Origin: an uncultured Anaerolineales bacterium
GTDB taxonomy: Bacteria; Chloroflexota; Anaerolineae; Anaerolineales; UBA11858
NCBI GenBank assembly: GCA_964618295.1
Contig: CAZTWV010000001.1
Coordinates: 92,863-156,862 of the forward strand
Direction of reading: 5' to 3'
Length of the DNA: 64,000 nt
A program made the translations under genes and the position numbers. This document shows, piece after piece, positions 3,782-58,373 of this stretch. Positions within the stretch are counted from its first letter, which is position 1. Each line of letters starts with the position of its first letter. The notes beneath the pieces were generated by a model. The model was not told the origin of the DNA and made no database searches. It was given only the letters and a program-made list of their open reading frames with translations.

Positions 3782-6283
3782 TCAGCTGATATCTCCCTGG
3801 AATTCCTGATCCCAGAAACGGCTGACAGCCGCCGAAAGCTTCTGATTGGGACTTTTATTCAACTCTGGATCGGACTCAAAGAGAGAAATTGCTTCCTGCC
3901 GGGCCTGTTCGATCAAACTCAAATCTGACATGCTGGCAACTTTCAATTCGGAAAAACCTGACTGTCGGGTACCCAAAAACTGCCCCGGCCCCCGAAGTTT
4001 CAAATCATATTCCGCTAATTTAAAACCATCATTGGTTTCTTTCATCGCCAGAAGGCGTTTATTTTCCACTGCTTCTGCACTTCCAGGGATCAGAATGCAG
4101 TAAGATTGCTGGTCACCGCGTCCTACCCGGCCCCGGAATTGGTGTAGCTGGGCCAGGCCAAAGCGGTCCGCCCCTTCGATCACCATCACTGTCGCCTGGG
4201 GAATGTCCACTCCCACCTCAATGACTGAGGTGGAAACCATAACCTGCAGTTCCCGGTCCCGAAAACGGGTCATAACTGATTCTTTTTCCTCCGGGCTCAA
4301 CCGGCCGTGGAGCAGCCCGAGTTTGAGTGACGGAAAAACACTTTTTTGCAGCTGCTGATATTCTTCCACGGCTGCTTTTTCATCCATCTTGTCGCTTTCT
4401 TCTACCAGGGGATAGATAATAAACGCCTGATTCCCTATCTCAACTTGACGGCGGATCAGAGAGTAAGCCCGTTCCGTTTCACGGGGGTAAAGAACATGAG
4501 TTTCCACAGGCTGGCGTCCTGGTGGCAGTTCATCAATCACGGAAAGTTCCAGATCACCATACAGGGTTAAAGCCAAACTGCGAGGAATAGGAGTAGCGGT
4601 CATAACCAGCAGGTGGGGATTTTCTCCCTTTTCCCGGAGTCTGGAGCGCTGCTCGACACCAAAGCGGTGCTGTTCATCCACGACTGCAAACTGTAAGTTC
4701 TGGAAAACTACCGGATCCTGCAGTAATGCATGGGTTCCGATGACGAGTTTGATGGCTCCTGACTTCAAGCCCTGTCTGATTTCTTCTTTTTCCGATTCTG
4801 GAGTGGATCCAATTAAGAGCCGGATATCGTCGTTTCTCAACTCGGATTCAGGACCAGTCAGCAAATCTTTAAAGCTCTGGAAATGCTGTTCGGCCAGGAT
4901 GCTGGTCGGGGCCATCACAGCTGCCTGGGCACCATGATGAATTACGATTAATGCCGCCAGAGCAGCGACGACTGTTTTTCCTGAACCTACATCACCCTGC
5001 AGCAGGCGGTTCATTGGATGCGCAGATTGCAGGTCTCCCCGGATTTGTTTCAGAGCTTTGTCCTGGGCTCCCGTTAAGGAGTAAGGTAGGCGGGAAAGCT
5101 GTTCTTCGAGCCATTCATCCTGGACAGGATAGGACCTGCCTGTCCTGTTTTCCCACTGGTACTTTTGTTTCAGAACCCCCACCTGGAGATAAAATATTTC
5201 TTCAAATGCCAATCTTTCCCGGGCTCTGGCAAGTGCTGAATCAGAAGATGGGAAATGAATTTCCCGGACCGCATCTTGATGGGAAAGGAGCTTGGTCTGC
5301 TGAATAACGTCTTCCGGCAGGGGGTCATCGAGAAAAGGTGTGTAAACTTTAACTTGATCGTGGATCAAACCCCGAAGCCATTTTTGAGTCAGGTCCCGGG
5401 TCAGGGGGTAAACCGGAACAATCCGGTTCGTATGGAGCTGCTTTTCGGTCAGAGGTTCCCACTCGGGGTTGTTCATCGTCAAACGTCCGAGATACTGTTC
5501 GATCGTTCCGCTCAGAACCACCTGTTTTGCTTTCCCTAACTGCTGGGCAATCCAGGGTTGATTGAACCAGGTTACCCGCAAGGATCCGCTCTTATCGGAG
5601 ACCACAGCTTCCACAATTTTCATTCTCCCGCTGCGGACACTGCGGGTGTTGATATTGACAATGGAGCCGATGATTGTAACCTCTTCACCGAACCAGAGCG
5701 ATTGAATTGGCTTTAACTGGGAATAATCATCATGCCGGCGGGGATAATGATAGATCAGGTCCCTGATTTTTGTGATTCCCAAGCGTTCCAATGCCTCCGC
5801 CCGTTTGGGGCCAATCCCATGTAAAGCGGTGACCGGGGCTTCAATTTCAAGCTCCGGCGGGGTTGGTTCCGGAGTTTTTTCAATCGGTGAAACCTGTACA
5901 GGTTCAGCAGCTGCCGCAGGTGCGGGAGGTGAAGCTGGTTTTTCCTGCTCTGTTTCTTGAGGTGGTTTGGTTTGGGTTTGTTCAGGGCCAGTTGTGGATG
6001 CAGCGTCCCGATTTTCGGAATCAGATTCCAGGCCTAAATCGCGCTGAACACGCTGCCAGATACCCTGCAGAACCACTTTCCGGGATTCAGGTGTTAATTG
6101 ATGGTAGTCTCTTAACCGGCTGATCACGGCTTGAATGGTTTGTTCAGGAAGCTGGTCTTTGCGGGCTTCCAGTTCCCAGGATGAGAGGATATTTGCTAAT
6201 CCCCCCATTACTGCCTTATTGTCATACCCTCTTTTTGCTTCCAGTCGAAAAAAATTCCGTAATTTTTGGATTGAAGTTTTCAT
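3782..6283 (-). CDS. recG: ATP-dependent DNA helicase RecG with a ~150-aa N-terminal extension
   Basis: Walker A 'GDVGSGKT', 'VVDEQHRFG', motif VI 'QLHQFRGRVGRG', and a wedge-domain region (RVTWFNQPW). A Pro/Glu/Thr-rich low-complexity stretch is near the N-terminus. Confidence 0.93.
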   Translation of the reverse strand: MKTSIQKLRNFFRLEAKRGYDNKAVMGGLANILSSWELEARKDQLPEQTIQAVISRLRDYHQLTPESRKVVLQGIWQRVQRDLGLESDSENRDAASTTGPEQTQTKPPQETEQEKPASPPAPAAAAEPVQVSPIEKTPEPTPPELEIEAPVTALHGIGPKRAEALERLGITKIRDLIYHYPRRHDDYSQLKPIQSLWFGEEVTIIGSIVNINTRSVRSGRMKIVEAVVSDKSGSLRVTWFNQPWIAQQLGKAKQVVLSGTIEQYLGRLTMNNPEWEPLTEKQLHTNRIVPVYPLTRDLTQKWLRGLIHDQVKVYTPFLDDPLPEDVIQQTKLLSHQDAVREIHFPSSDSALARARERLAFEEIFYLQVGVLKQKYQWENRTGRSYPVQDEWLEEQLSRLPYSLTGAQDKALKQIRGDLQSAHPMNRLLQGDVGSGKTVVAALAALIVIHHGAQAAVMAPTSILAEQHFQSFKDLLTGPESELRNDDIRLLIGSTPESEKEEIRQGLKSGAIKLVIGTHALLQDPVVFQNLQFAVVDEQHRFGVEQRSRLREKGENPHLLVMTATPIPRSLALTLYGDLELSVIDELPPGRQPVETHVLYPRETERAYSLIRRQVEIGNQAFIIYPLVEESDKMDEKAAVEEYQQLQKSVFPSLKLGLLHGRLSPEEKESVMTRFRDRELQVMVSTSVIEVGVDIPQATVMVIEGADRFGLAQLHQFRGRVGRGDQQSYCILIPGSAEAVENKRLLAMKETNDGFKLAEYDLKLRGPGQFLGTRQSGFSELKVASMSDLSLIEQARQEAISLFESDPELNKSPNQKLSAAVSRFWDQEFQGDIS

Positions 6284-29501: not shown

Positions 29502-30617
29502 ATGACACTGGAACAGGGTGCTCTCCTGATTGATCGATACCGGGTAATCGAGGTGCTCGGTCAGGGAGGGATGGGTTCAATTTACCGCGCGGTGGATGAA
29601 AATCTCGGCGTAGAAGTCGCGATCAAGGAGAATTTATTCACGATCGATGATTATGCCCGCCAGTTCCGGCGCGAAGCCTTAATCCTTGCCAATCTGCGTC
29701 ATCCAAACCTGCCCCGTGTTTCGGACCATTTTACCGTCGACGATCAGGGGCAGTACCTGATTATGGATTATATTGAGGGGGAGGACCTCCAGGAACGCAT
29801 GGAGCGAATCGGCCGGCTCCCGGAAGAAGAGGTTATTTATCTCGGGGCTACAATCTGCGATGCCCTGGCATATATGCATTCTCACGATCCGGTGGTTCTG
29901 CATCGGGATATCAAACCAGCCAATGTTCGGATTCGTCCCAGTGGGGGAGTTTACCTTGTTGATTTCGGACTGGCGAAAATCATGCATGGGAATCAAACCA
30001 CAACAACAGGTGCCCGGGCGATGACGATGGGTTTTTCTCCCCCGGAGCAGTATGGGGCAGCGCGAACTGACGCGAGGACGGATATTTATTCACTGGGAGC
30101 AACTCTCTACACGGCTCTGACTGGATTTACACCAGAAGATAGTTTGGCCCAGACCATGGATCAGGAAGATCTAACTCCAGTGCGCGAACGCAACCCCAAT
30201 GTCTCCCGCCGGGTTGCTGATGCAGTTGAAAAAGCGCTTCAAGTTCACCCGAACGACCGCTTTCAAATGGCTGCCGAATTTAAGAATGAACTTCTGAAAG
30301 CTCAGAGCGGGCGTTTTAATCTCAGTTTTGGATTGGACTCCCAGCAGGAAATTGCGGCGAAAAAAGCAGATCGGAAGCAAGCGGAAAAATCGATCGTCCG
30401 GGGAGTAATCACCAAGGATGTGTCGGGTGATACTGATCAGGGTAAACGTATTTCCAGTCAGAAAAAAGCCCGCAAAAGTGCTTCCTCACCGGCAATTGAC
30501 CGCGGGGGATGTCTCGGTCTGTTGGGGCTGCTGGCCTTGATCCTGGTGCTGGGTGGATTGGTTTTTTATCTTCTCAATCCCGAACTGGCCCGGGTCTTTT
30601 TCCAGCTTCCATTTTGA
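29502..30617 (+). CDS. Hanks-type Ser/Thr protein kinase with a C-terminal TM anchor
   Basis: 'LGQGGMGSIY', 'AIK', 'HRDIKPAN', 'DFGLAK', 'SPPEQ', and a C-terminal hydrophobic helix. Confidence 0.9.
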   Translation: MTLEQGALLIDRYRVIEVLGQGGMGSIYRAVDENLGVEVAIKENLFTIDDYARQFRREALILANLRHPNLPRVSDHFTVDDQGQYLIMDYIEGEDLQERMERIGRLPEEEVIYLGATICDALAYMHSHDPVVLHRDIKPANVRIRPSGGVYLVDFGLAKIMHGNQTTTTGARAMTMGFSPPEQYGAARTDARTDIYSLGATLYTALTGFTPEDSLAQTMDQEDLTPVRERNPNVSRRVADAVEKALQVHPNDRFQMAAEFKNELLKAQSGRFNLSFGLDSQQEIAAKKADRKQAEKSIVRGVITKDVSGDTDQGKRISSQKKARKSASSPAIDRGGCLGLLGLLALILVLGGLVFYLLNPELARVFFQLPF

Positions 30618-30670
30618 TTTTCTTTGGATTTTTTCCCTTTAAATTTGATTTTGTGATCCTCCCGCCTTAA

Positions 30671-30686
30671 TGTGACAAACATCACA
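30671..30686. promoter_or_regulatory. CRP/FNR-type palindrome TGTGA-N6-TCACA
   Basis: The exact sequence TGTGACAAACATCACA lies about 27 nt upstream of the putative -35. Confidence 0.4.
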
Positions 30687-30701
30687 ATATAAGTTAAAAA
30701 T

Positions 30702-30716
30702 TTGTCAGACAATTGA
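30702..30716. promoter_or_regulatory. Candidate operator, TTGTCAGACAA palindrome (15-mer TTGTCAGACAATTGA identical to 56849-56863)
   Basis: An 11-bp TTGTC-N-GACAA palindrome of GntR-type 'GT-N-AC' architecture. It abuts and overlaps the -35 hexamer. Confidence 0.55.
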
Positions 30717-30741
30717 CAGTCAAAGGCTTGTTTGTTAAACT
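30713..30741 (+). promoter_or_regulatory. Putative sigma70-type promoter of the amidohydrolase gene (TTGACA-17 nt-TAAACT)
   Basis: A perfect -35 at 30713-30718, a 17-nt spacer, and TAAACT at 30736-30741. The ATG is at 30783. Confidence 0.45.
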
Positions 30742-30745
30742 TATA

Positions 30746-30756
30746 TTGTCTGACAA
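30746..30756. promoter_or_regulatory. Candidate operator, TTGTCTGACAA (reverse complement of site 30702-30712)
   Basis: It lies immediately downstream of the putative -10. The extended match TATATTGTC-N-GACAA is shared with 56792-56806. Confidence 0.55.
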
Positions 30757-30782
30757 ATTTCTACACAGGACCAAAGGCGAGG

Positions 30783-32174
30783 ATGATTATGCCCACACTT
30801 CTTGTCAAGAACGCCCAGATCTTAGTAACAATGGATGAACACCGCCGTGAGATTGAAAACGGTGGTCTTTTTGTTAAAGACGGCTTTATTGAACAGGTCG
30901 GGCCCACGGATCAACTTCCGAAAAAGGCCGATAGAGTCCTGGACCTGGCTGGCCATCTGGTACTGCCGGGACTGATCAACACCCACCATCATTTTTATCA
31001 AACACTGACCCGGGTTGTTCCAGAGGCGCAGGACGCCAATCTTTTTCATTGGTTGAAAACCCTCTATACCATCTGGGCTCGGATGCAGCCAGAGGATATT
31101 CAGATTTCAACCAAAACAGCTCTGGCTGAACTGGCTCTTTCGGGCTGTACAACAGCATCCGATCACCTGTATTTATTTCCGAATGGCTCACGTTTGGATC
31201 ATGAAATTGAAGCTGCCCTTGAGATAGGACTTCGTTTGCATGCCTCCCGCGGTTCAATGAGCCTGGGAGAAAGTGATGGAGGTTTACCTCCTGACAGCGT
31301 GGTAGAAGATGAAGATTATATTTTAGAGGATTCCCGACGCTTGATTGAGACCTATCATGACAGCAGCCCGGGTTCGATGACCCAAATTGTGCTTGCTCCA
31401 TGTTCGCCGTTCAGTGTCACGGGTGATTTGATGCGTGAAAGCGCAGTTTTAGCCCGTGAATATGGGGTGCAGCTGCATACCCACCTGGCCGAGACGGAAG
31501 ATGAGATCGATTTTTGTATTGAAATGTTCGGGAAACGCCCTGTTGCCTACATGGAAGAAGTGGATTGGATCGGTCCGGATGTCTGGTTCGCCCATTCAGT
31601 CTACGTTAATGACCAGGAAATTAAAGTCTATGCTGATCACCATTGTGGTGTGGCCCACTGCCCGAGCTCAAATATGCGTCTGGCTTCCGGTGCAGCTCCG
31701 ATTCTGGATCTGCGGGCTGCCGGCGTTGATGTCGGGTTGGGCGTGGATGGATCCGCCAGCAATGATGGATCCCATATGATTGAAGAGGCCCGTCAGGCGA
31801 TGCTTCTATCCCGCCTTCGGGCTGGAATGATGGGGGCTTCTCGCTCTGATGGAGGGGCTCAGCCGATTATGTCAGCCCGGCAGGTGCTGGAACTGGCCAC
31901 AATTGGCGGTGCTGCAGTCCTCGGTCGAGAGGATATCGGCTCCCTGGCAGCTGGAAAGGCAGCTGATTTTACGGCGATTAATTTAAACCGGATTGATTAT
32001 GCAGGTGCACTGCACGATCCAGTGGCTGCCGTACCGTTTTGTGCTCCGGTGAAAGTGGATTACACCGTAGTCGGAGGGAAAATGATTGTTAAGGATGGAC
32101 AGCTGATGACCGAGGATCTACCGGTCTTGATTGAGAACCACAACAAGGCTGCTCACAGGTTATTAAACGAATAA
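30783..32174 (+). CDS. COG0402-type amidohydrolase, 8-oxoguanine/guanine/isoxanthopterin-deaminase-like
   Basis: 'PGLINTHHHFYQTLTR', 'HTHLAETEDE', 'AHSVY', 'HCPSSNMRL', and 'GVDGSASND'. The start is set at the first ATG (MIMPTLLVKNA) rather than the TTG at 30732. Confidence 0.8.
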   Translation: MIMPTLLVKNAQILVTMDEHRREIENGGLFVKDGFIEQVGPTDQLPKKADRVLDLAGHLVLPGLINTHHHFYQTLTRVVPEAQDANLFHWLKTLYTIWARMQPEDIQISTKTALAELALSGCTTASDHLYLFPNGSRLDHEIEAALEIGLRLHASRGSMSLGESDGGLPPDSVVEDEDYILEDSRRLIETYHDSSPGSMTQIVLAPCSPFSVTGDLMRESAVLAREYGVQLHTHLAETEDEIDFCIEMFGKRPVAYMEEVDWIGPDVWFAHSVYVNDQEIKVYADHHCGVAHCPSSNMRLASGAAPILDLRAAGVDVGLGVDGSASNDGSHMIEEARQAMLLSRLRAGMMGASRSDGGAQPIMSARQVLELATIGGAAVLGREDIGSLAAGKAADFTAINLNRIDYAGALHDPVAAVPFCAPVKVDYTVVGGKMIVKDGQLMTEDLPVLIENHNKAAHRLLNE

Positions 32175-32209: not shown

Positions 32210-34012
32210 ATGACTTTGGAAAAAATCAGCACCGAAACAAGAAATCTCGTAGATGTGGCCATGGGCCGCACAACTGCGGATCTGCTGTTTCAGAACGGGA
32301 TCTGGGTTTGTGTTCAAACCGGTGAGTTCATTCCCGGGACGGATATCGCTGTCTCTGGCGATCGGATTGCTTTTGTGGGTCCTGATGCCAGTCATACGAT
32401 TGGAGATGAGACCGAAGTGATCGACGCCCGGGGAAAGTATCTGGTCCCTGGTTTGCTGGATGCCCATATGCATATTGAATCCGGGATGGTAACGATTACG
32501 GAGTTTGTCCGGGCAGTGGCCCCCCGAGGGACGACCGGGATGTTTGTTGATCCCCATGAGATAGCCAATGTATTCGGGTTGGAAGGTGTTCGGCTGATGG
32601 CAGACGAAGCGGAAAACCAGCCTGTTCATGTCTGGGTTCAGGTTCCCTCCTGTGTGCCGTCTGCACCGGGATTAGAAACACCGGGATCGGCAATCGGTCC
32701 CGAGGAAGTTGAAGAAGCAATGACCTGGGACCGAATTATCGGCCTGGGAGAAATGATGAATTTTCCGGGTGTGTTTACTAGTGATCAAAAGATGCACGAT
32801 GAAATGGCAGCAACCCGGGCTGCCGGGAAAGTGATCGGCGGGCATTATGCTTCTCCGGATCTGGGACTGCCGTTTCATGGATATGCCGCCGGCGGCCCGG
32901 AAGATGACCATGAAGGAACCCGGAAAGAAGATGCTGCCGCCCGCGTCCGGCAGGGGATGAAAGCCATGCTACGGTATGGTTCAGGTTGGCTCGATGTAGA
33001 AGCCCAGATTAAAGCCATTACGGAAGATGGACTCGATTCCCGTCATTTTCTGCTCTGCACGGATGATTCCCATTCTGAGACCCTGGTCAATGACGGTCAT
33101 ATGGACCGTGTTCTGCGTCATACCATCGGGTTGGGCGTGGATCCGATGCTGGCGATTCAGATGGCAACCATTAATACTGCAGAGCATTTCGGAGTTGCCC
33201 GAGATCTGGGCCAGATTGCCCCCGGCCGTTTTGCCGATGTGCTGATCGTTGAAGATTTGCAGGATTTCCGGCCGGAGCTGGTGCTGGCACAAGGTCAGGT
33301 GCTGGCCCGGGATATGAAATGGGAGATTGATCTTCCAGCTTATACCTACCCGGATTGGGCAGCTGACTCCATTCACCTCCAGCGCCCGTTGACAGCGGAG
33401 GATTTCCGCCTTCCTGTCTCATCAGAGCTCCAGGATGAGATATTAATGGCCCATGTGATTGGAGTGATTGAAGGGCAGGCACCTACCAAACATCTGCAGA
33501 TCCAGGTTGAGGCAGAAAATGGGGAAGTTCGAATCGATTTGGATCGCGATCTGGCGAAGATCGCACTTGTTGAACGCCACAAGGGGACCGGCGGAGTAGA
33601 GGTAGGCCTTGTTCAAGGATTTGGCTTTGAAGGAAAATGCGCGACAGGGACCACGGTAGCCCATGACTCCCACCATATGATTGTGGTTGGGACAGATGAG
33701 GAGCAGATGGCTCTGGCTGCGAATCATCTGGCAGAGATTCACGGCGGTCAGGTTGTGATCCAGGATGGAAAAGTGATTGGAGAAGTGGCCCTGCCAATTG
33801 CAGGCTTGATGTCCAATCAACGGGCAGATCTGGTAGCAGAAGAAGCGGCAACCGTCTTGGAGGGATTCAGGAATTGCGGCTGCACGATCGTAAATCCCAA
33901 TATGCAGTTGAGCTTGCTGGCCCTGGCAGTGATTCCGGCCCTCCGGATTTCTGATCTGGGGCTGGTGGATGTCGAGAAGTTTGAATTTGTACCCGTGCTG
34001 GAAAAAGAATAA
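32210..34012 (+). CDS. ade: Adenine deaminase (COG1001 family)
   Basis: 'PGLLDAHMHIESGM', ~600 aa, and the C-terminal domain motif 'AHDSHHMIVVGTD'. Confidence 0.85.
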   Translation: MTLEKISTETRNLVDVAMGRTTADLLFQNGIWVCVQTGEFIPGTDIAVSGDRIAFVGPDASHTIGDETEVIDARGKYLVPGLLDAHMHIESGMVTITEFVRAVAPRGTTGMFVDPHEIANVFGLEGVRLMADEAENQPVHVWVQVPSCVPSAPGLETPGSAIGPEEVEEAMTWDRIIGLGEMMNFPGVFTSDQKMHDEMAATRAAGKVIGGHYASPDLGLPFHGYAAGGPEDDHEGTRKEDAAARVRQGMKAMLRYGSGWLDVEAQIKAITEDGLDSRHFLLCTDDSHSETLVNDGHMDRVLRHTIGLGVDPMLAIQMATINTAEHFGVARDLGQIAPGRFADVLIVEDLQDFRPELVLAQGQVLARDMKWEIDLPAYTYPDWAADSIHLQRPLTAEDFRLPVSSELQDEILMAHVIGVIEGQAPTKHLQIQVEAENGEVRIDLDRDLAKIALVERHKGTGGVEVGLVQGFGFEGKCATGTTVAHDSHHMIVVGTDEEQMALAANHLAEIHGGQVVIQDGKVIGEVALPIAGLMSNQRADLVAEEAATVLEGFRNCGCTIVNPNMQLSLLALAVIPALRISDLGLVDVEKFEFVPVLEKE

Positions 34013-34016
34013 AACT

Positions 34017-34742
34017 ATGAGTGAAAACGATGTATCAAAAACAATCCATGAGCAGCTCAGCACCTTAATTGCTGAGACAGATTCTGGAGAAAGGCTTCCA
34101 TCGGAACCCAAGCTGGCGAAAAACCTGGGTGTTTCCCGGGCGACCCTGCGGGAAGCGATGCGAACTTTTGAAACCCGAGGCTTGCTGCAGAGGAAACAAG
34201 GTGTAGGAACGTTTGTAATCCATCCCACCCATGTCTTCGAGACCGGGCTGGAAAATTTGATGAGTCTGGAGAACTTGGCGGATCAAATTGGGCTGGATGT
34301 AGATATGGGCGAGCTGGTCGTCAAAGAAATTACTGCGGATGGGGATCTTGCAAAGACTCTCACCGTTCCGGAAGGTGAGCTCATACTCCAGGTAGCCCGC
34401 ACGATCCTGGCAGAAAACAGACCGATCGCGTATTTGGTCGATAATCTGCCGACGGATGTGCTGTCGGCTGATGAAGTTAATCAAAAATTCACCGGATCAG
34501 TCCTGGATTTGTTGATCACCCATGACGATATTCCCCTGACCAGTTCACGCTGTGATATCACAGCCATGGGAGCACCGCCTGAGATAGCCAGTGCGCTGGA
34601 TATCCAGCGGCGGGATCCGCTGCTGATATTTTCATCCAAACTGTACAACAATCAAGGAAGGATTATCGATTATTCTTTCAGCTATTTTATCCCCGGACAT
34701 TTTCGTTTTCATATTGTCCGGAGAATAGTCAGTCAAATTTAA
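34017..34742 (+). CDS. GntR-family transcriptional regulator, HutC/UTRA subfamily
   Basis: N-terminal wHTH 'LPSEPKLAKNLGVSRATLREAMRTFETRGLLQRKQGVGTFV' plus a ~150-aa UTRA-like effector domain. The start is at ATG 34017, just after the ade stop. Confidence 0.88.
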   Translation: MSENDVSKTIHEQLSTLIAETDSGERLPSEPKLAKNLGVSRATLREAMRTFETRGLLQRKQGVGTFVIHPTHVFETGLENLMSLENLADQIGLDVDMGELVVKEITADGDLAKTLTVPEGELILQVARTILAENRPIAYLVDNLPTDVLSADEVNQKFTGSVLDLLITHDDIPLTSSRCDITAMGAPPEIASALDIQRRDPLLIFSSKLYNNQGRIIDYSFSYFIPGHFRFHIVRRIVSQI

Positions 34743-55885: not shown

Positions 55886-56827
55886 ATGACCGAGAAACCA
55901 ACCTTTACAATCATAGCTCCAATTTTCAATGAGGTGGAGAATCTCCCGATTTTGTACACCCGAATTTGCGAGGTGATGGATCAAACCGGTCAGCCCTGGG
56001 AAATGGTGATGGTTAATGATGGATCCAGCGATGGATCCACAGAGAAGTTGGACGAGCTGCAAGCGGCGGATGAGCGAATCCGGGTTGTTCATTTTGCCCG
56101 GAATTTTGGACACCAGATTGCGGTCACAGCTGGTTTGGATTACAGCAGGGGGGATGCTGTCGTGATAATTGACGCAGATCTCCAGGACCCGCCGGAAGTG
56201 ATTCTAGATTTAATCTCCAAGTGGAAAGAAGGTTATGAAGTGGTTTACGCTGTACGGGCTAAACGAGAGGGGGAGACCTGGTTTAAACTCTTCACAGCTG
56301 CAGCTTTTTACAGGCTTATTCAGCGGATTACCGATGTTGATATTCCAATGGATACCGGGGATTTCAGGCTTCTGGATCGGACAGTTGTCGACGTCATGAA
56401 CCAGATGCGGGAGCGGCACCGCTTTTTACGCGGGATGTCGGTCTGGGTTGGATTTAAGCAAATTGGGGTTGAATATGAAAGAGCCGAGCGTTTTGCCGGA
56501 GAGACCAAGTACCCTCTCCGTAAAATGCTGCGTTTTGCCCTTGATGCAATTACAGGATTTTCGTATTTTCCCCTTCAGCTTTCAATGTACCTGGGATTTA
56601 TTGCTGCCGGGTTGAGCATTCTCTCAATTCCGGTGGTGATCGCTCTTCGATTGGCAGGATCCCAGGCTTTTTTCGGCCAGGCATCTACCCTGATTGCTGT
56701 TCTGTTTCTGGGTGGTGTTCAGTTAATTTCCCTTGGGATTGTCGGGGAATACATCGGGCGTTTGTATGATGAAGCGAAAGGCCGACCTCTCTATATTGTC
56801 AGACAACACCCTCCCAAAAAACAGTAA
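55886..56827 (+). CDS. Family-2 glycosyltransferase, polyprenyl-phosphate glycosyltransferase-like (DPM1/ArnC/GtrB type)
   Basis: 'IIAPIFNE', 'VNDGSSDGS', '[10 protein letters not shown]', and two C-terminal TM helices. Confidence 0.88.
56796..56806. promoter_or_regulatory. Candidate operator TTGTCAGACAA (inside the 3' end of the GT2 gene)
   Basis: The exact 11-mer. The extended form TATATTGTCAGACAA matches 30742-30756 except for the central base. Confidence 0.5.
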
Positions 56828-56848: not shown

Positions 56849-56863
56849 TTGTCAGACAATTGA
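56849..56863. promoter_or_regulatory. Candidate operator TTGTCAGACAATTGA (identical 15-mer to 30702-30716)
   Basis: It lies 47 nt upstream of the ATG at 56910. The downstream elements AGGCTTG and AACTTA recur at similar spacing at both loci. Confidence 0.55.
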
Positions 56864-56909: not shown

Positions 56910-58373
56910 ATGATTGACCTCTCCATGGATAAAAAGCAGTTAGAACGGACTGTGCAGCGGGCCCGGGAACGCAATATTATCATCCCGACTTTTGCACAAA
57001 TGAAGAACCCTGAACTGATTCCAGATTCAGTCAAAAACGAGTTGAAGGATATCGGTCTCTGGGATATCACCTCCCGCAACCTGTTCCGGATCACCTGGAA
57101 AAACGAACCGGTTGCCAAAGGCGGTGGTTATGGTGGTGTAAATTACATTGAGCTTCCCCCGAGCCTGACCGGTGTCAAGGCCCGGATTATTGCCCTGGTT
57201 GGAAAGTGGTTCCCCACTGGTGCTCATAAAGTTGGAGCGACTTTTGGCTGTCTGGTTCCCCCGCTGGTTACCGGCCAGTTTGACCCGACCTACCACCAGG
57301 CTGTTTGGCCCTCCACCGGAAATTACTGCCGGGGCGGTGCCTATGATGCTTCCCTCCTGGCCTGTGAATCGATTGCCATCCTCCCTGAAGGAATGAGCCG
57401 GGAACGTTTTGAATGGTTGGAAAAAGTAGCTGGTGAGGTAATTGCGACTCCTGGCTCCGAGAGCAATGTGAAAGAAATTTATGACAAAGTCAAAGAGCTG
57501 AAAGCAGAACGTGATAACGTTTTTGTCTTCAATCAGTTTGATGAATTCGGCAACTACCTCTGGCACTATGAAGTTACCGGTCATGCCATGGAAGAGGTTT
57601 TGCAGGAAGTGATGGGCCCGCGCGATGAATACCGCGGCCTGACCCTGACCACCGGTTCCGCCGGGACTCTGGGTGTGGGTGATTACATGAAGCAGCTTTT
57701 CCCCGGCAGCATCAACGTAGCCGGAGAAGCTCTGCAGTGTCCCACCTTGCTGGAAAACGGCTTTGGCGCTCACCGGATCGAGGGTATCGGCGACAAACAT
57801 GTTCCCTGGATTCACAATGTCAAAAATACCGATATGATTATGGCGATTGACGATAACACCGTGGTCAACCTGGCCCGGCTCTTCAATGAACCTGCCGGAC
57901 ATAAATACCTGACCGATGTGGGTGTTCCCGAGGATCTGGTTGGAAAACTGGACCTGCTGGGATTCTCCAGCATTGCCAACACCGTGATGGCAATCAAGAT
58001 GGCTAAGTACTACGAGATGGATGAGAATGACGTGATCCTCACTGTTTGGACTGACTCCATGGAACTGTATGAGAGCCGCCTGCATGAAATGCATGAGGAA
58101 ATTGGTCAGTACACCGAAATGGATGCTGCCCAGACTCACGCCATGTACATCTGCGGTCTGACCCCGAATTACCTCCAGGATCTGACCTATCAGGATCAGC
58201 GCCGGGTCCACAACCTGAAATACTTCACCTGGGTCGAGCAGCAGGGCAAGACCTTTGAACAAATCCAGGACCAGTGGTATGAACGGGATTACTGGACCAA
58301 TTTCCAGAAGCAAATTCCGGATATTGATGAATTAATCGTGGAATTCAATGAGCGGGTAGGTTTGCTCAAATAA
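56910..58373 (+). CDS. Large (487-aa) PALP-fold, TrpB-like PLP-dependent enzyme of unknown specificity
   Basis: 'GKWFPTGAHKVGATFG' resembles the TrpB 'HTGAHK' PLP-lysine motif, and 'STGNYCRGGA' is also present. The start is chosen at the first ATG (MIDLSMDKK) behind a GGA-rich RBS rather than the TTG at 56865. Confidence 0.65.
   Translation: MIDLSMDKKQLERTVQRARERNIIIPTFAQMKNPELIPDSVKNELKDIGLWDITSRNLFRITWKNEPVAKGGGYGGVNYIELPPSLTGVKARIIALVGKWFPTGAHKVGATFGCLVPPLVTGQFDPTYHQAVWPSTGNYCRGGAYDASLLACESIAILPEGMSRERFEWLEKVAGEVIATPGSESNVKEIYDKVKELKAERDNVFVFNQFDEFGNYLWHYEVTGHAMEEVLQEVMGPRDEYRGLTLTTGSAGTLGVGDYMKQLFPGSINVAGEALQCPTLLENGFGAHRIEGIGDKHVPWIHNVKNTDMIMAIDDNTVVNLARLFNEPAGHKYLTDVGVPEDLVGKLDLLGFSSIANTVMAIKMAKYYEMDENDVILTVWTDSMELYESRLHEMHEEIGQYTEMDAAQTHAMYICGLTPNYLQDLTYQDQRRVHNLKYFTWVEQQGKTFEQIQDQWYERDYWTNFQKQIPDIDELIVEFNERVGLLK

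Follow-up and report, generated by a model that had tools for sequence, protein, structure and literature searches.

Which proteins control the purine-catabolic genes of an uncultured member of the Anaerolineales, and through which sites do they act? The question is raised by a compact control region at 30671-30756 of a 64,000-nucleotide (nt) stretch of DNA, hereafter the window (positions 92,863 to 156,862 of contig CAZTWV010000001.1, assembly GCA_964618295.1). This region is flanked by a Ser/Thr kinase gene (29502-30617) on one side and by a cluster of co-directional purine-catabolic genes on the other, in a metagenome-assembled genome of 3.35 Mb with 49% G+C in 130 contigs. An earlier reading, made from the letters of the window without any comparison (the sequence-only reading), had listed five elements here: a CRP-type palindrome, a first palindromic operator abutting a -35 hexamer, a -10 hexamer, a second copy of the operator and a 10-bp inverted pair. 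All of them are found in place, and comparison with relatives indicates that four of the five are real. We propose, with a probability of about 0.75, that the operon's own HutC-type repressor, a GntR-family protein encoded at 34017-34742 on the forward strand, occludes the promoter, and that a non-local regulator acts near -70.

The operator pair, its promoter and the GntR protein of the operon

The first operator has the core TTGTCAGACAA (30702-30712) and abuts the -35 hexamer, and the second, TTGTCTGACAA (30746-30756), lies over the predicted transcription start. Across the genome the exact motif TTGTCNGACAA is not enriched, with four sites against about three expected by chance, but all four sites are arranged as two pairs in the purine cluster, both within the window. 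The genome-wide scan advocated in the sequence-only reading is thus unremarkable in its count and telling in its arrangement. Exact pairs, defined by a gap of 15-45 nt, are expected by chance about 9e-5 times per genome and about 0.02 times over the 251 genomes of our order-wide sample. They are present in 42 of these 251 genomes, while the reversed motif, which served as control, yields 0. Likewise, a set of 80 loci with an orthologue of the GntR gene, taken from public genomes and amounting to 1.13 Mb, contains 125 exact sites and 0 reversed-control sites. An exact site is present in 70 of the 80 loci and a pair in 59, nearly all of them about 3.3 kb upstream of the GntR gene.

The 22 promoters recovered from the genus all have operator 1 abutting TTGACA amid diverged flanks, and wherever operon and regulator are on the same contig the operators stand about 3.3 kb upstream of the GntR orthologue. 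Operator 2 follows TAAACT by 4-5 nt in 21 of these 22 promoters, and in 47 of 67 non-redundant promoters it begins 44-45 nt after the beginning of the first. The full operator comprises 15 bp, AnTTGTCWGACAAnT (AtTTGTCAGACAAtT at 30700-30714 for operator 1), with an A at -2 and a T at +12 conserved at both sites and A or T as the central base in 98% of sites. The order-wide pairs and this conservation bear out the earlier suggestion that the two palindromes are operators bracketing the promoter.

The promoter itself had been recognized as TTGACA, a 17-nt spacer and TAAACT, and both a hexamer scan (TTGACA-17-TAAACT with TG, 10 of 12 matches) and the conservation of its columns uphold this assignment. 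On the forward strand, the -35 hexamer occupies 30713-30718 and the -10 hexamer 30736-30741, 17 nt past the -35. The sequence-only reading missed the TG at 30733-30734, which turns the latter into an extended -10 (TGtTAAACT, 30733-30741). The region therewith shows each feature of a sigma-70-type extended -10 promoter: a -35, a spacer of 16-18 nt, a TATAAT-like -10 and a TG one base upstream. TTGACA stands directly 3' of operator 1 in essentially all related promoters. Phylogenetic footprinting was based on 47 promoters with less than 90% mutual identity, anchored only on operator 1 and TTGAC. The columns TTTGnTAAACT, for which these non-redundant promoters were not selected, hold 1.3-2.0 bits, whereas nine columns of the spacer, the sequence of which drifts, hold only 0.1-0.3 bits. 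The operator columns are likewise nearly invariant in these 47 promoters. Variation of the -10 across the order is limited to TGnTA(A/C/T)ACT. Judged by this footprinting, the near-consensus promoter is real. With a start assumed 7 nt past the -10, transcription would begin at about 30748, inside operator 2, which places operator 1 at -46 to -36 and operator 2 at -2 to +9. The 41-nt leader has no match to an Rfam family and folds no better than shuffled sequence.

Several variants of this layout were observed. One locus of the genus (L036 of genome G024, near 4508) keeps operator 1, the -35 and the -10 and has lost the start operator (TAAACTTGACAATTCAAAG), and thus represents a natural single-operator variant. 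In two genomes of a sister genus, G129 (contig 22, 6272-6327) and G238 (contig 61, 8824-8867), an additional exact operator pair at another locus flanks a TTATAAT -10-like hexamer. In Levilinea saccharolytica KIBI-1 (L110:4591-4627) and at loci L095, L133 and L136, an operator falls within the final codons of the upstream gene (...ELSDK stop), the palindrome GTGACAAAAGTCAT comes directly next, and the -35-adjacent operator is found 26 nt after the first operator; at these four loci no operator lies over the transcription start. In the window, an imperfect 16-nt direct repeat (CTTCCATTTTGATTTT / CTTTAAATTTGATTTT, 31 nt apart, 30606-30652) runs from the end of the kinase gene into the intergenic region.

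As the sequence-only reading had supposed, both operators are most likely bound by the operon's GntR/UTRA protein. No other candidate comes close: the protein is co-localised with the operators in 40 of the 42 pair-bearing genomes, its recognition helix is invariant, and footprints of GntR-family proteins on the same core have been published. The protein consists of a winged helix-turn-helix domain (PF00392, 59.4 bits against a cut-off of 27, residues 8-67) followed by a UTRA domain (PF07702, 74 bits against a cut-off of 23.8, residues 100-229), and its closest solved structures are NagR/YvoA (E = 3e-17) and DasR (E = 6e-11). At a cut-off of E <= 1e-45, orthologues are encoded in 131 of the 251 genomes, i.e., in 40 of 42 with the pair as compared to 91 of 209 without it (Fisher p = 7e-11). 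Where pair and orthologue are assembled together, they are 1.4-4.4 kb apart on the same contig. The two pair-bearing genomes without an orthologue are explained by assembly gaps: in one the pair lies 2.3 kb from a contig end, and the other genome is 84% complete. Residues S40, R41, L44, R45 and E46 of the recognition helix are invariant across orthologues with 46-72% overall identity, which matches the invariant core of the operator. Among the genes within 8 kb of the operon at the 80 loci, the GntR gene is the only recurrent regulator. Published precedents are AlkR, an FCD/VanR member of the GntR family that protects ATTGTCAGACAAT in footprints (PMC12042122), and NupR, a HutC-type nucleoside regulator that binds GGTCAGACGT cores (PMC9430930). 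There is thus an established precedent for a GntR winged helix reading this core, including a HutC protein with a nucleoside regulon.

In the mechanism that we infer from these elements, a HutC-type GntR dimer on each 15-bp palindrome would block RNA polymerase at the extended -10 promoter. The two operator-bound dimers may cooperate or form a loop, the latter having been considered in the sequence-only reading. The GntR protein would repress its own synthesis together with that of both deaminases of the operon. Binding of a small-molecule effector, presumably a purine or nucleoside, to the UTRA domain would release the repressor. A non-local protein of the CRP/FNR family, bound at about -70, would act as an activator from a class-I-like position.

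The upstream palindrome and its regulator

The palindrome TGTGACAAACATCACA at 30671-30686 contains an exact TGTGA-N6-TCACA, with a conserved core RTGAY-N4-RTCAY at 30672-30685. TGTGA-N6-TCACA is the CRP form of the sites of the CRP/FNR family, and TTGAT-N4-ATCAA that of FNR. Its centre lies at -69.5 to -70.5 relative to the predicted start; the CRP-like site had been placed near -70 for a start 7 nt after the -10, and this position holds (the computed centre is -69.5), as does the element itself, which is conserved. In the window alone, TGTGA-N6-TCACA is not significant, with 28 of 100 shuffles reaching as many one-mismatch matches, and the support comes instead from its conservation in relatives. 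Within 50 nt upstream of operator 1, 27 of the 67 non-redundant promoters carry an exact RTGAY-N4-RTCAY, where shuffled sequences predict 0.05, and eight more have a one-mismatch version (1 expected). The palindrome occurs at discrete offsets from operator 1: the genus has it at -31/-30, a second clade at -20 and the Levilinea/Longilinea/Bellilinea clade at -15, and the centres would be at about -70, -60 and -55, respectively. In the last of these clades it is wedged against operator 1, and the second operator is absent. The symmetrised logo of these palindromes, A-T-R-TGA-Y-T-W (a version in relatives is ATGATTAAAATCAT), fits the CRP half-site AAATGTGAT of Escherichia coli better than the Rex half-site TTGTGAA, and the flanks resemble AAATGTGATCT. 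High-scoring copies are also found in the own genome before two other purine loci, on contig 25 and contig 24, and argue for a real purine-linked input. The upstream palindrome is best read as a conserved element and the putative site of a different regulator that is encoded non-locally.

The locus on contig 25 (280-7969) encodes a HutC-like GntR paralogue, an ABC ATPase, a BMP lipoprotein, two permeases and a third adenine-deaminase paralogue, and GTGATATTTGTCAT lies 105 nt before the first gene of this purine/nucleoside operon. On contig 24 (8139-15680), a second xanthine-dehydrogenase-like locus encodes a fused FeS/Mo subunit (926 amino acids) and an SsnA-like hydrolase. An M20 peptidase gene is oriented divergently from this locus, and the half-palindrome GTGATTTTAATCCC is located in the intergenic region between them.

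As for the identity of the regulator, we lean, by a little more than an even chance, towards the CRP/FNR family. The genome encodes four CRP/FNR proteins (HTH_Crp_2, above cut-off), two of which carry the CRP-type R-E-x-x-x-R helix (STREMVCR and TVREVVSR). The designation as a CRP-type site is consistent with the shape of the motif and with these four genes, but co-evolution with a CRP paralogue did not substantiate it. For CRP paralogue 2 (helix TVREVVSR), a raw co-occurrence with the palindrome that looked strong within the genus and beyond (20/10/9/32, Fisher p = 2e-4) was lost in phylogenetically independent pairs, which on the deaminase tree agreed with the association 1.2 times and opposed it 1.0 times. 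The recognition helix of this paralogue is invariant and therefore offers no co-variation, and CRP paralogue 1 is also present in genomes without the palindrome.

Apart from this association, which disappeared after phylogenetic control, several observations weigh against our proposal. No palindrome was found near the 16 genes of CRP paralogue 2 that were examined, i.e., there is no autoregulatory site, and Longilinea arvoryzae has the palindrome and no homologue of this paralogue at E <= 1e-25. In addition, the positions of the palindrome (-70, -60, -55, -75) are not all in helical phase, and similar palindromes occur upstream of ArsR-family genes and near Rex-type targets.

Two other candidates were rejected. 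The second HutC-like GntR protein has the palindrome in its own promoter (contig 25, site 280), and most palindrome-bearing genomes of the genus lack its orthologue. A locally encoded regulator was likewise discarded, as CRP1-4, Rex, ArsR and MocR have no homologue within 8 kb of the operon at the 80 loci.

Clearly less probable than a CRP/FNR protein, yet a possibility to be taken seriously, is that the palindrome serves another family of winged-helix dimers, e.g., of the ArsR type, or that it is a lineage-specific remnant without function. Indeed, GTGAY-N4-RTCAC palindromes are located 70-95 bp upstream of ArsR-family genes in the own genome and in two relatives; these are probably autoregulatory operators, which are easily mistaken for CRP or Rex boxes. 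Furthermore, the palindrome is absent from about half of the related promoters and degenerate on one side in some of them (ATGATATTTATCCC), and no regulator is statistically linked to it. These points have to be set against the excess over chance (27 sites versus 0.05), the discrete offsets in separate clades, and the high-scoring copies before the two other purine loci of the genome. The palindromes of the ArsR genes are found at L235:1331, L241:1301 and L245:1326, and on contig 50 (2140) of the own genome, where the ArsR gene adjoins YeeE/YedE-type and cytochrome genes.

An operator for Rex, which would tie purine fermentation to NADH/NAD+, appears unlikely. Rex is available in principle, being encoded in the own genome (contig 21, 4887-5504) and in 35 of 41 relatives, and the ATGTG-N8-CACAA of the window agrees at 9 of 10 positions with the local Rex-like TTGTG-N8-CACAA. 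Boxes of the latter form are located upstream of rex, a Hox hydrogenase, etfB, an ADP-forming acetyl-CoA synthetase, a FocA-like gene and pncB, and an orthologous site before an AhpD-like gene reads GTGAAAATATTCAC in the own genome and GTGATTAATATCAC in a relative. Compared with the complete Rex site TTGTGAA-N4-TTCACAA, the site of the window has 3 mismatches to the 14 specified bases, and the palindromes of relatives are without the outer TT/AA and often without the first G of the Rex box. What relatives conserve instead is the inner RTGAY...RTCAY: the G required by Rex is more often A (61%), position -2 is A and not T, and the base after TGA is T/C and not A. For a simple repressor, a site 70 bp upstream of the start would also be unusual. 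With Rex in almost every genome of the order, its presence provides no contrast to set against the patchy palindrome. The probable Rex regulon of the own genome (contig 2, 81968-82130; contig 3, 103331; contig 21, 5533) includes the Hox-type NAD-linked hydrogenase operon and has boxes before purA as well.

Other readings of the operators and extent of the regulon

The GT-N3-AC spacing within the operator speaks against assigning the pair to the GntR protein of the operon. Operators of the GntR family follow the form Ny-GT-Nx-AC-Ny, in which x is mostly 3 for FadR-type proteins and 4 for most HutC proteins (GTMTAKAC; PMC4494728). The operator described here fits this form with x = 3, i.e., with FadR-type spacing, and does not match the x = 4 typical of HutC. 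The T-GT-N-AC-A core, which the sequence-only reading took as typical of GntR/HutC, thus agrees with the family but not with the spacing typical of the subfamily, and a spacing of GT-N3-AC is atypical for HutC proteins, which mostly use N4 (PMC4494728). The same large comparative study of the GntR family had no Chloroflexi HutC regulon among those analysed (PMC4494728).

We nevertheless regard it as improbable that TTGTCWGACAA is bound by another regulator, e.g., a FadR/VanR-type GntR protein encoded elsewhere, like AlkR in Pseudomonas. Such a protein would account for the spacing, FCD-type GntR proteins are also encoded in the own genome, and the sole footprint on exactly this palindrome is that of an FCD/VanR protein (PMC12042122). 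On the other hand, NupR, a HutC-type protein, also uses the GTCAGAC core. In the 40 of 42 pair-bearing genomes with the HutC gene, this gene is almost always on the same contig, 1.4-4.4 kb downstream of the pair; only 2 of 120 genomes without the HutC gene have the pair, both with assembly gaps, and the 8 kb around the operon offer no other recurrent regulator gene at the 80 loci.

That the inverted repeats form a structural or mobile element (the end of a miniature inverted-repeat transposable element, a recombination site or an RNA hairpin), as the 19-nt, 95% complementary inverted repeat made up of the operators and their flanks, 31 nt apart, and the interleaved 15-nt inverted pair also returned by the repeat search might suggest, runs counter to what is conserved: relatives retain only the 15-bp operator and the promoter hexamers and not the remainder of the arms, the motif occurs elsewhere in the genome only at the second promoter, the repeat lies mostly upstream of the predicted start, and the leader shows neither an Rfam match nor a fold beyond that of shuffled sequence.

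The 10-bp inverted pair is the one listed element that comparison does not sustain. Its left arm AATATAAGTT (30686-30695) and right arm AACTTATATT (30738-30747) are present as described, and an inverted match of 10 nt is rare for this sequence, being reached in 9 of 2000 shuffles. Among 46 non-redundant relatives, however, the pair has no counterpart, the longest inverted match typically being 4-5 nt. Half of the right arm is contributed by the conserved -10. As the pair is located upstream of the predicted start, it cannot act as RNA. The pair appears to be unique to this genome, and a function for it is unsupported.

The operon that the GntR protein would control consists of three genes on the forward strand. 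The first (30789-32174) encodes an amidohydrolase of the 8-oxoguanine deaminase family (NF006055, 678.9 bits against a cut-off of 532); its start at 30789 is preceded by GAGG at 30779-30782, and the N-terminus MPTLLVKNA aligns with those of relatives. The second (32210-34012) encodes an adenine deaminase (TIGR01178, 500 bits against a cut-off of 472.5), and the third, the GntR-family regulator of the HutC subfamily (Pfam GntR and UTRA), starts 4 nt past the stop of the second. Farther downstream, the cluster comprises two carbamoyltransferases, a carbamate kinase, two BMP-type ABC importers, a second adenine-deaminase paralogue and a xanthine dehydrogenase.

The second operator pair of the window, with TTGTCAGACAA at 56796-56806 and at 56849-56859, lies upstream of a gene (56910-58373) for a pyridoxal-phosphate (PLP) enzyme of 487 amino acids, which on this basis is probably also under the operon's GntR protein. 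Both sites together are present in the own genome only. The site at 56796-56806 falls in the last codons of a glycosyltransferase gene (55886-56827) and appears to have arisen inside the reading frame: it owes its existence to the YIVRQ of this genome (codons AGA CAA), whereas relatives have YIVRE, use different codons and lack the site. In two close relatives, the corresponding position carries a site with one mismatch. The orthologous PLP-enzyme gene is preceded by a single exact site in three other genomes; its distance from the start is 35 nt in two distant genomes and about 50 nt in one member of the genus. Such scattered sites suggest that the enzyme has been recruited to the regulon repeatedly. 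At the same time, the second pair is not conserved in the genus, so that the regulon beyond the operon is labile, a further point that does not favour our proposal. One-mismatch sites number 71 in the own genome, only 8 of which are intergenic, with none at an obvious purine gene. Additional regulon members were also sought from single exact sites in relatives and rejected: the 20 sites examined are mostly in unrelated coding regions, and about 3 per genome are expected by chance.

Significance and comparison with known systems

Anaerolineales are abundant in sediments, digesters and soils but difficult to work with, and binding sites are known for almost none of their transcription factors. 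The present analysis provides predictions for the order in the form of the operator AnTTGTCWGACAAnT, the promoter consensus TTGACA-17-TGnTAnACT and a regulator-target pair. The operator may serve as a marker for purine-catabolic genes of unknown function, such as that of the 487-residue PLP enzyme, and repressor, operator and strong promoter could be combined into a purine-responsive switch. Tentatively, and with considerable doubt, the region may be seen as integrating two signals as in lac, with a HutC repressor that would, unusually, read a FadR-type palindrome and a global CRP-type activator at a class-I position. If this were true, it would be the first defined CRP-type regulon in Chloroflexota and would map the regulation of anaerobic purine fermentation on two tiers, in a phylum whose transcription factors are almost entirely uncharacterised. 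Taken together, the comparative evidence gives solid support to what appears to be a new, uncharacterised regulon of a well-known kind; its design is mechanistically an ordinary textbook one and would not surprise a specialist.

In E. coli, CRP class I promoters have their sites at -61.5 (lac) and -70.5 (malT). The upstream palindrome resembles these sites in its exact TGTGA-N6-TCACA, its AAATGTGAT-type flanks and its position at about -69.5 to -70.5, upstream of a promoter that, as in lac, would be controlled by a repressor. It differs from typical CRP-dependent promoters in that the core promoter is near consensus, and from the E. coli CRP site in that the first G is often A in relatives.

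The closest solved relatives of the GntR protein, NagR/YvoA of Bacillus subtilis and DasR of Streptomyces (2WV0, 4WWC, 4ZS8), share its two-domain build. Both act as dimers on palindromic operators in catabolic promoters and are released by a metabolite of the pathway, as we propose here. Their operators, however, are 16-bp sequences with GT-N4-AC (TGGTCTAGACCA type), and their effectors are amino-sugar phosphates.

AlkR, in turn, offers the closest likeness in the operator, since its DNase I footprint is identical to the core of operator 1 letter for letter. As a dimer on this palindrome, it represses a promoter that the site overlaps, and a catabolic intermediate releases it. Unlike the protein described here, AlkR has an FCD instead of a UTRA domain at its C-terminus, belongs to a different phylum, controls alkane oxidation in response to acyl-CoA effectors and relies on a single main site instead of a pair. 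The comparison indicates that a GntR winged helix can read the sequence and implies no relation beyond the family.

A further comparable system is NupR (NagR2) of Bacillus thuringiensis BMB171 (PMC9430930), likewise a HutC repressor of its own gene (here presumed) with a nucleoside/purine regulon. The NupR sites share the GTCAGAC core, with its identical centre, and the GT-N3-AC spacing with the operator of the Anaerolineales, but are imperfect 20-bp motifs instead of a perfect 15-bp palindrome. The NupR operon encodes a nucleoside-binding protein and components of an ABC transporter (PMC9430930). NupR controls transporters, with zinc as the reported effector, whereas the predicted targets in the window are two purine deaminases. 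Its promoter carries a purine riboswitch along with sites for CcpA, PurR and ComK, while the promoter described here has no riboswitch and is bracketed by paired operators.

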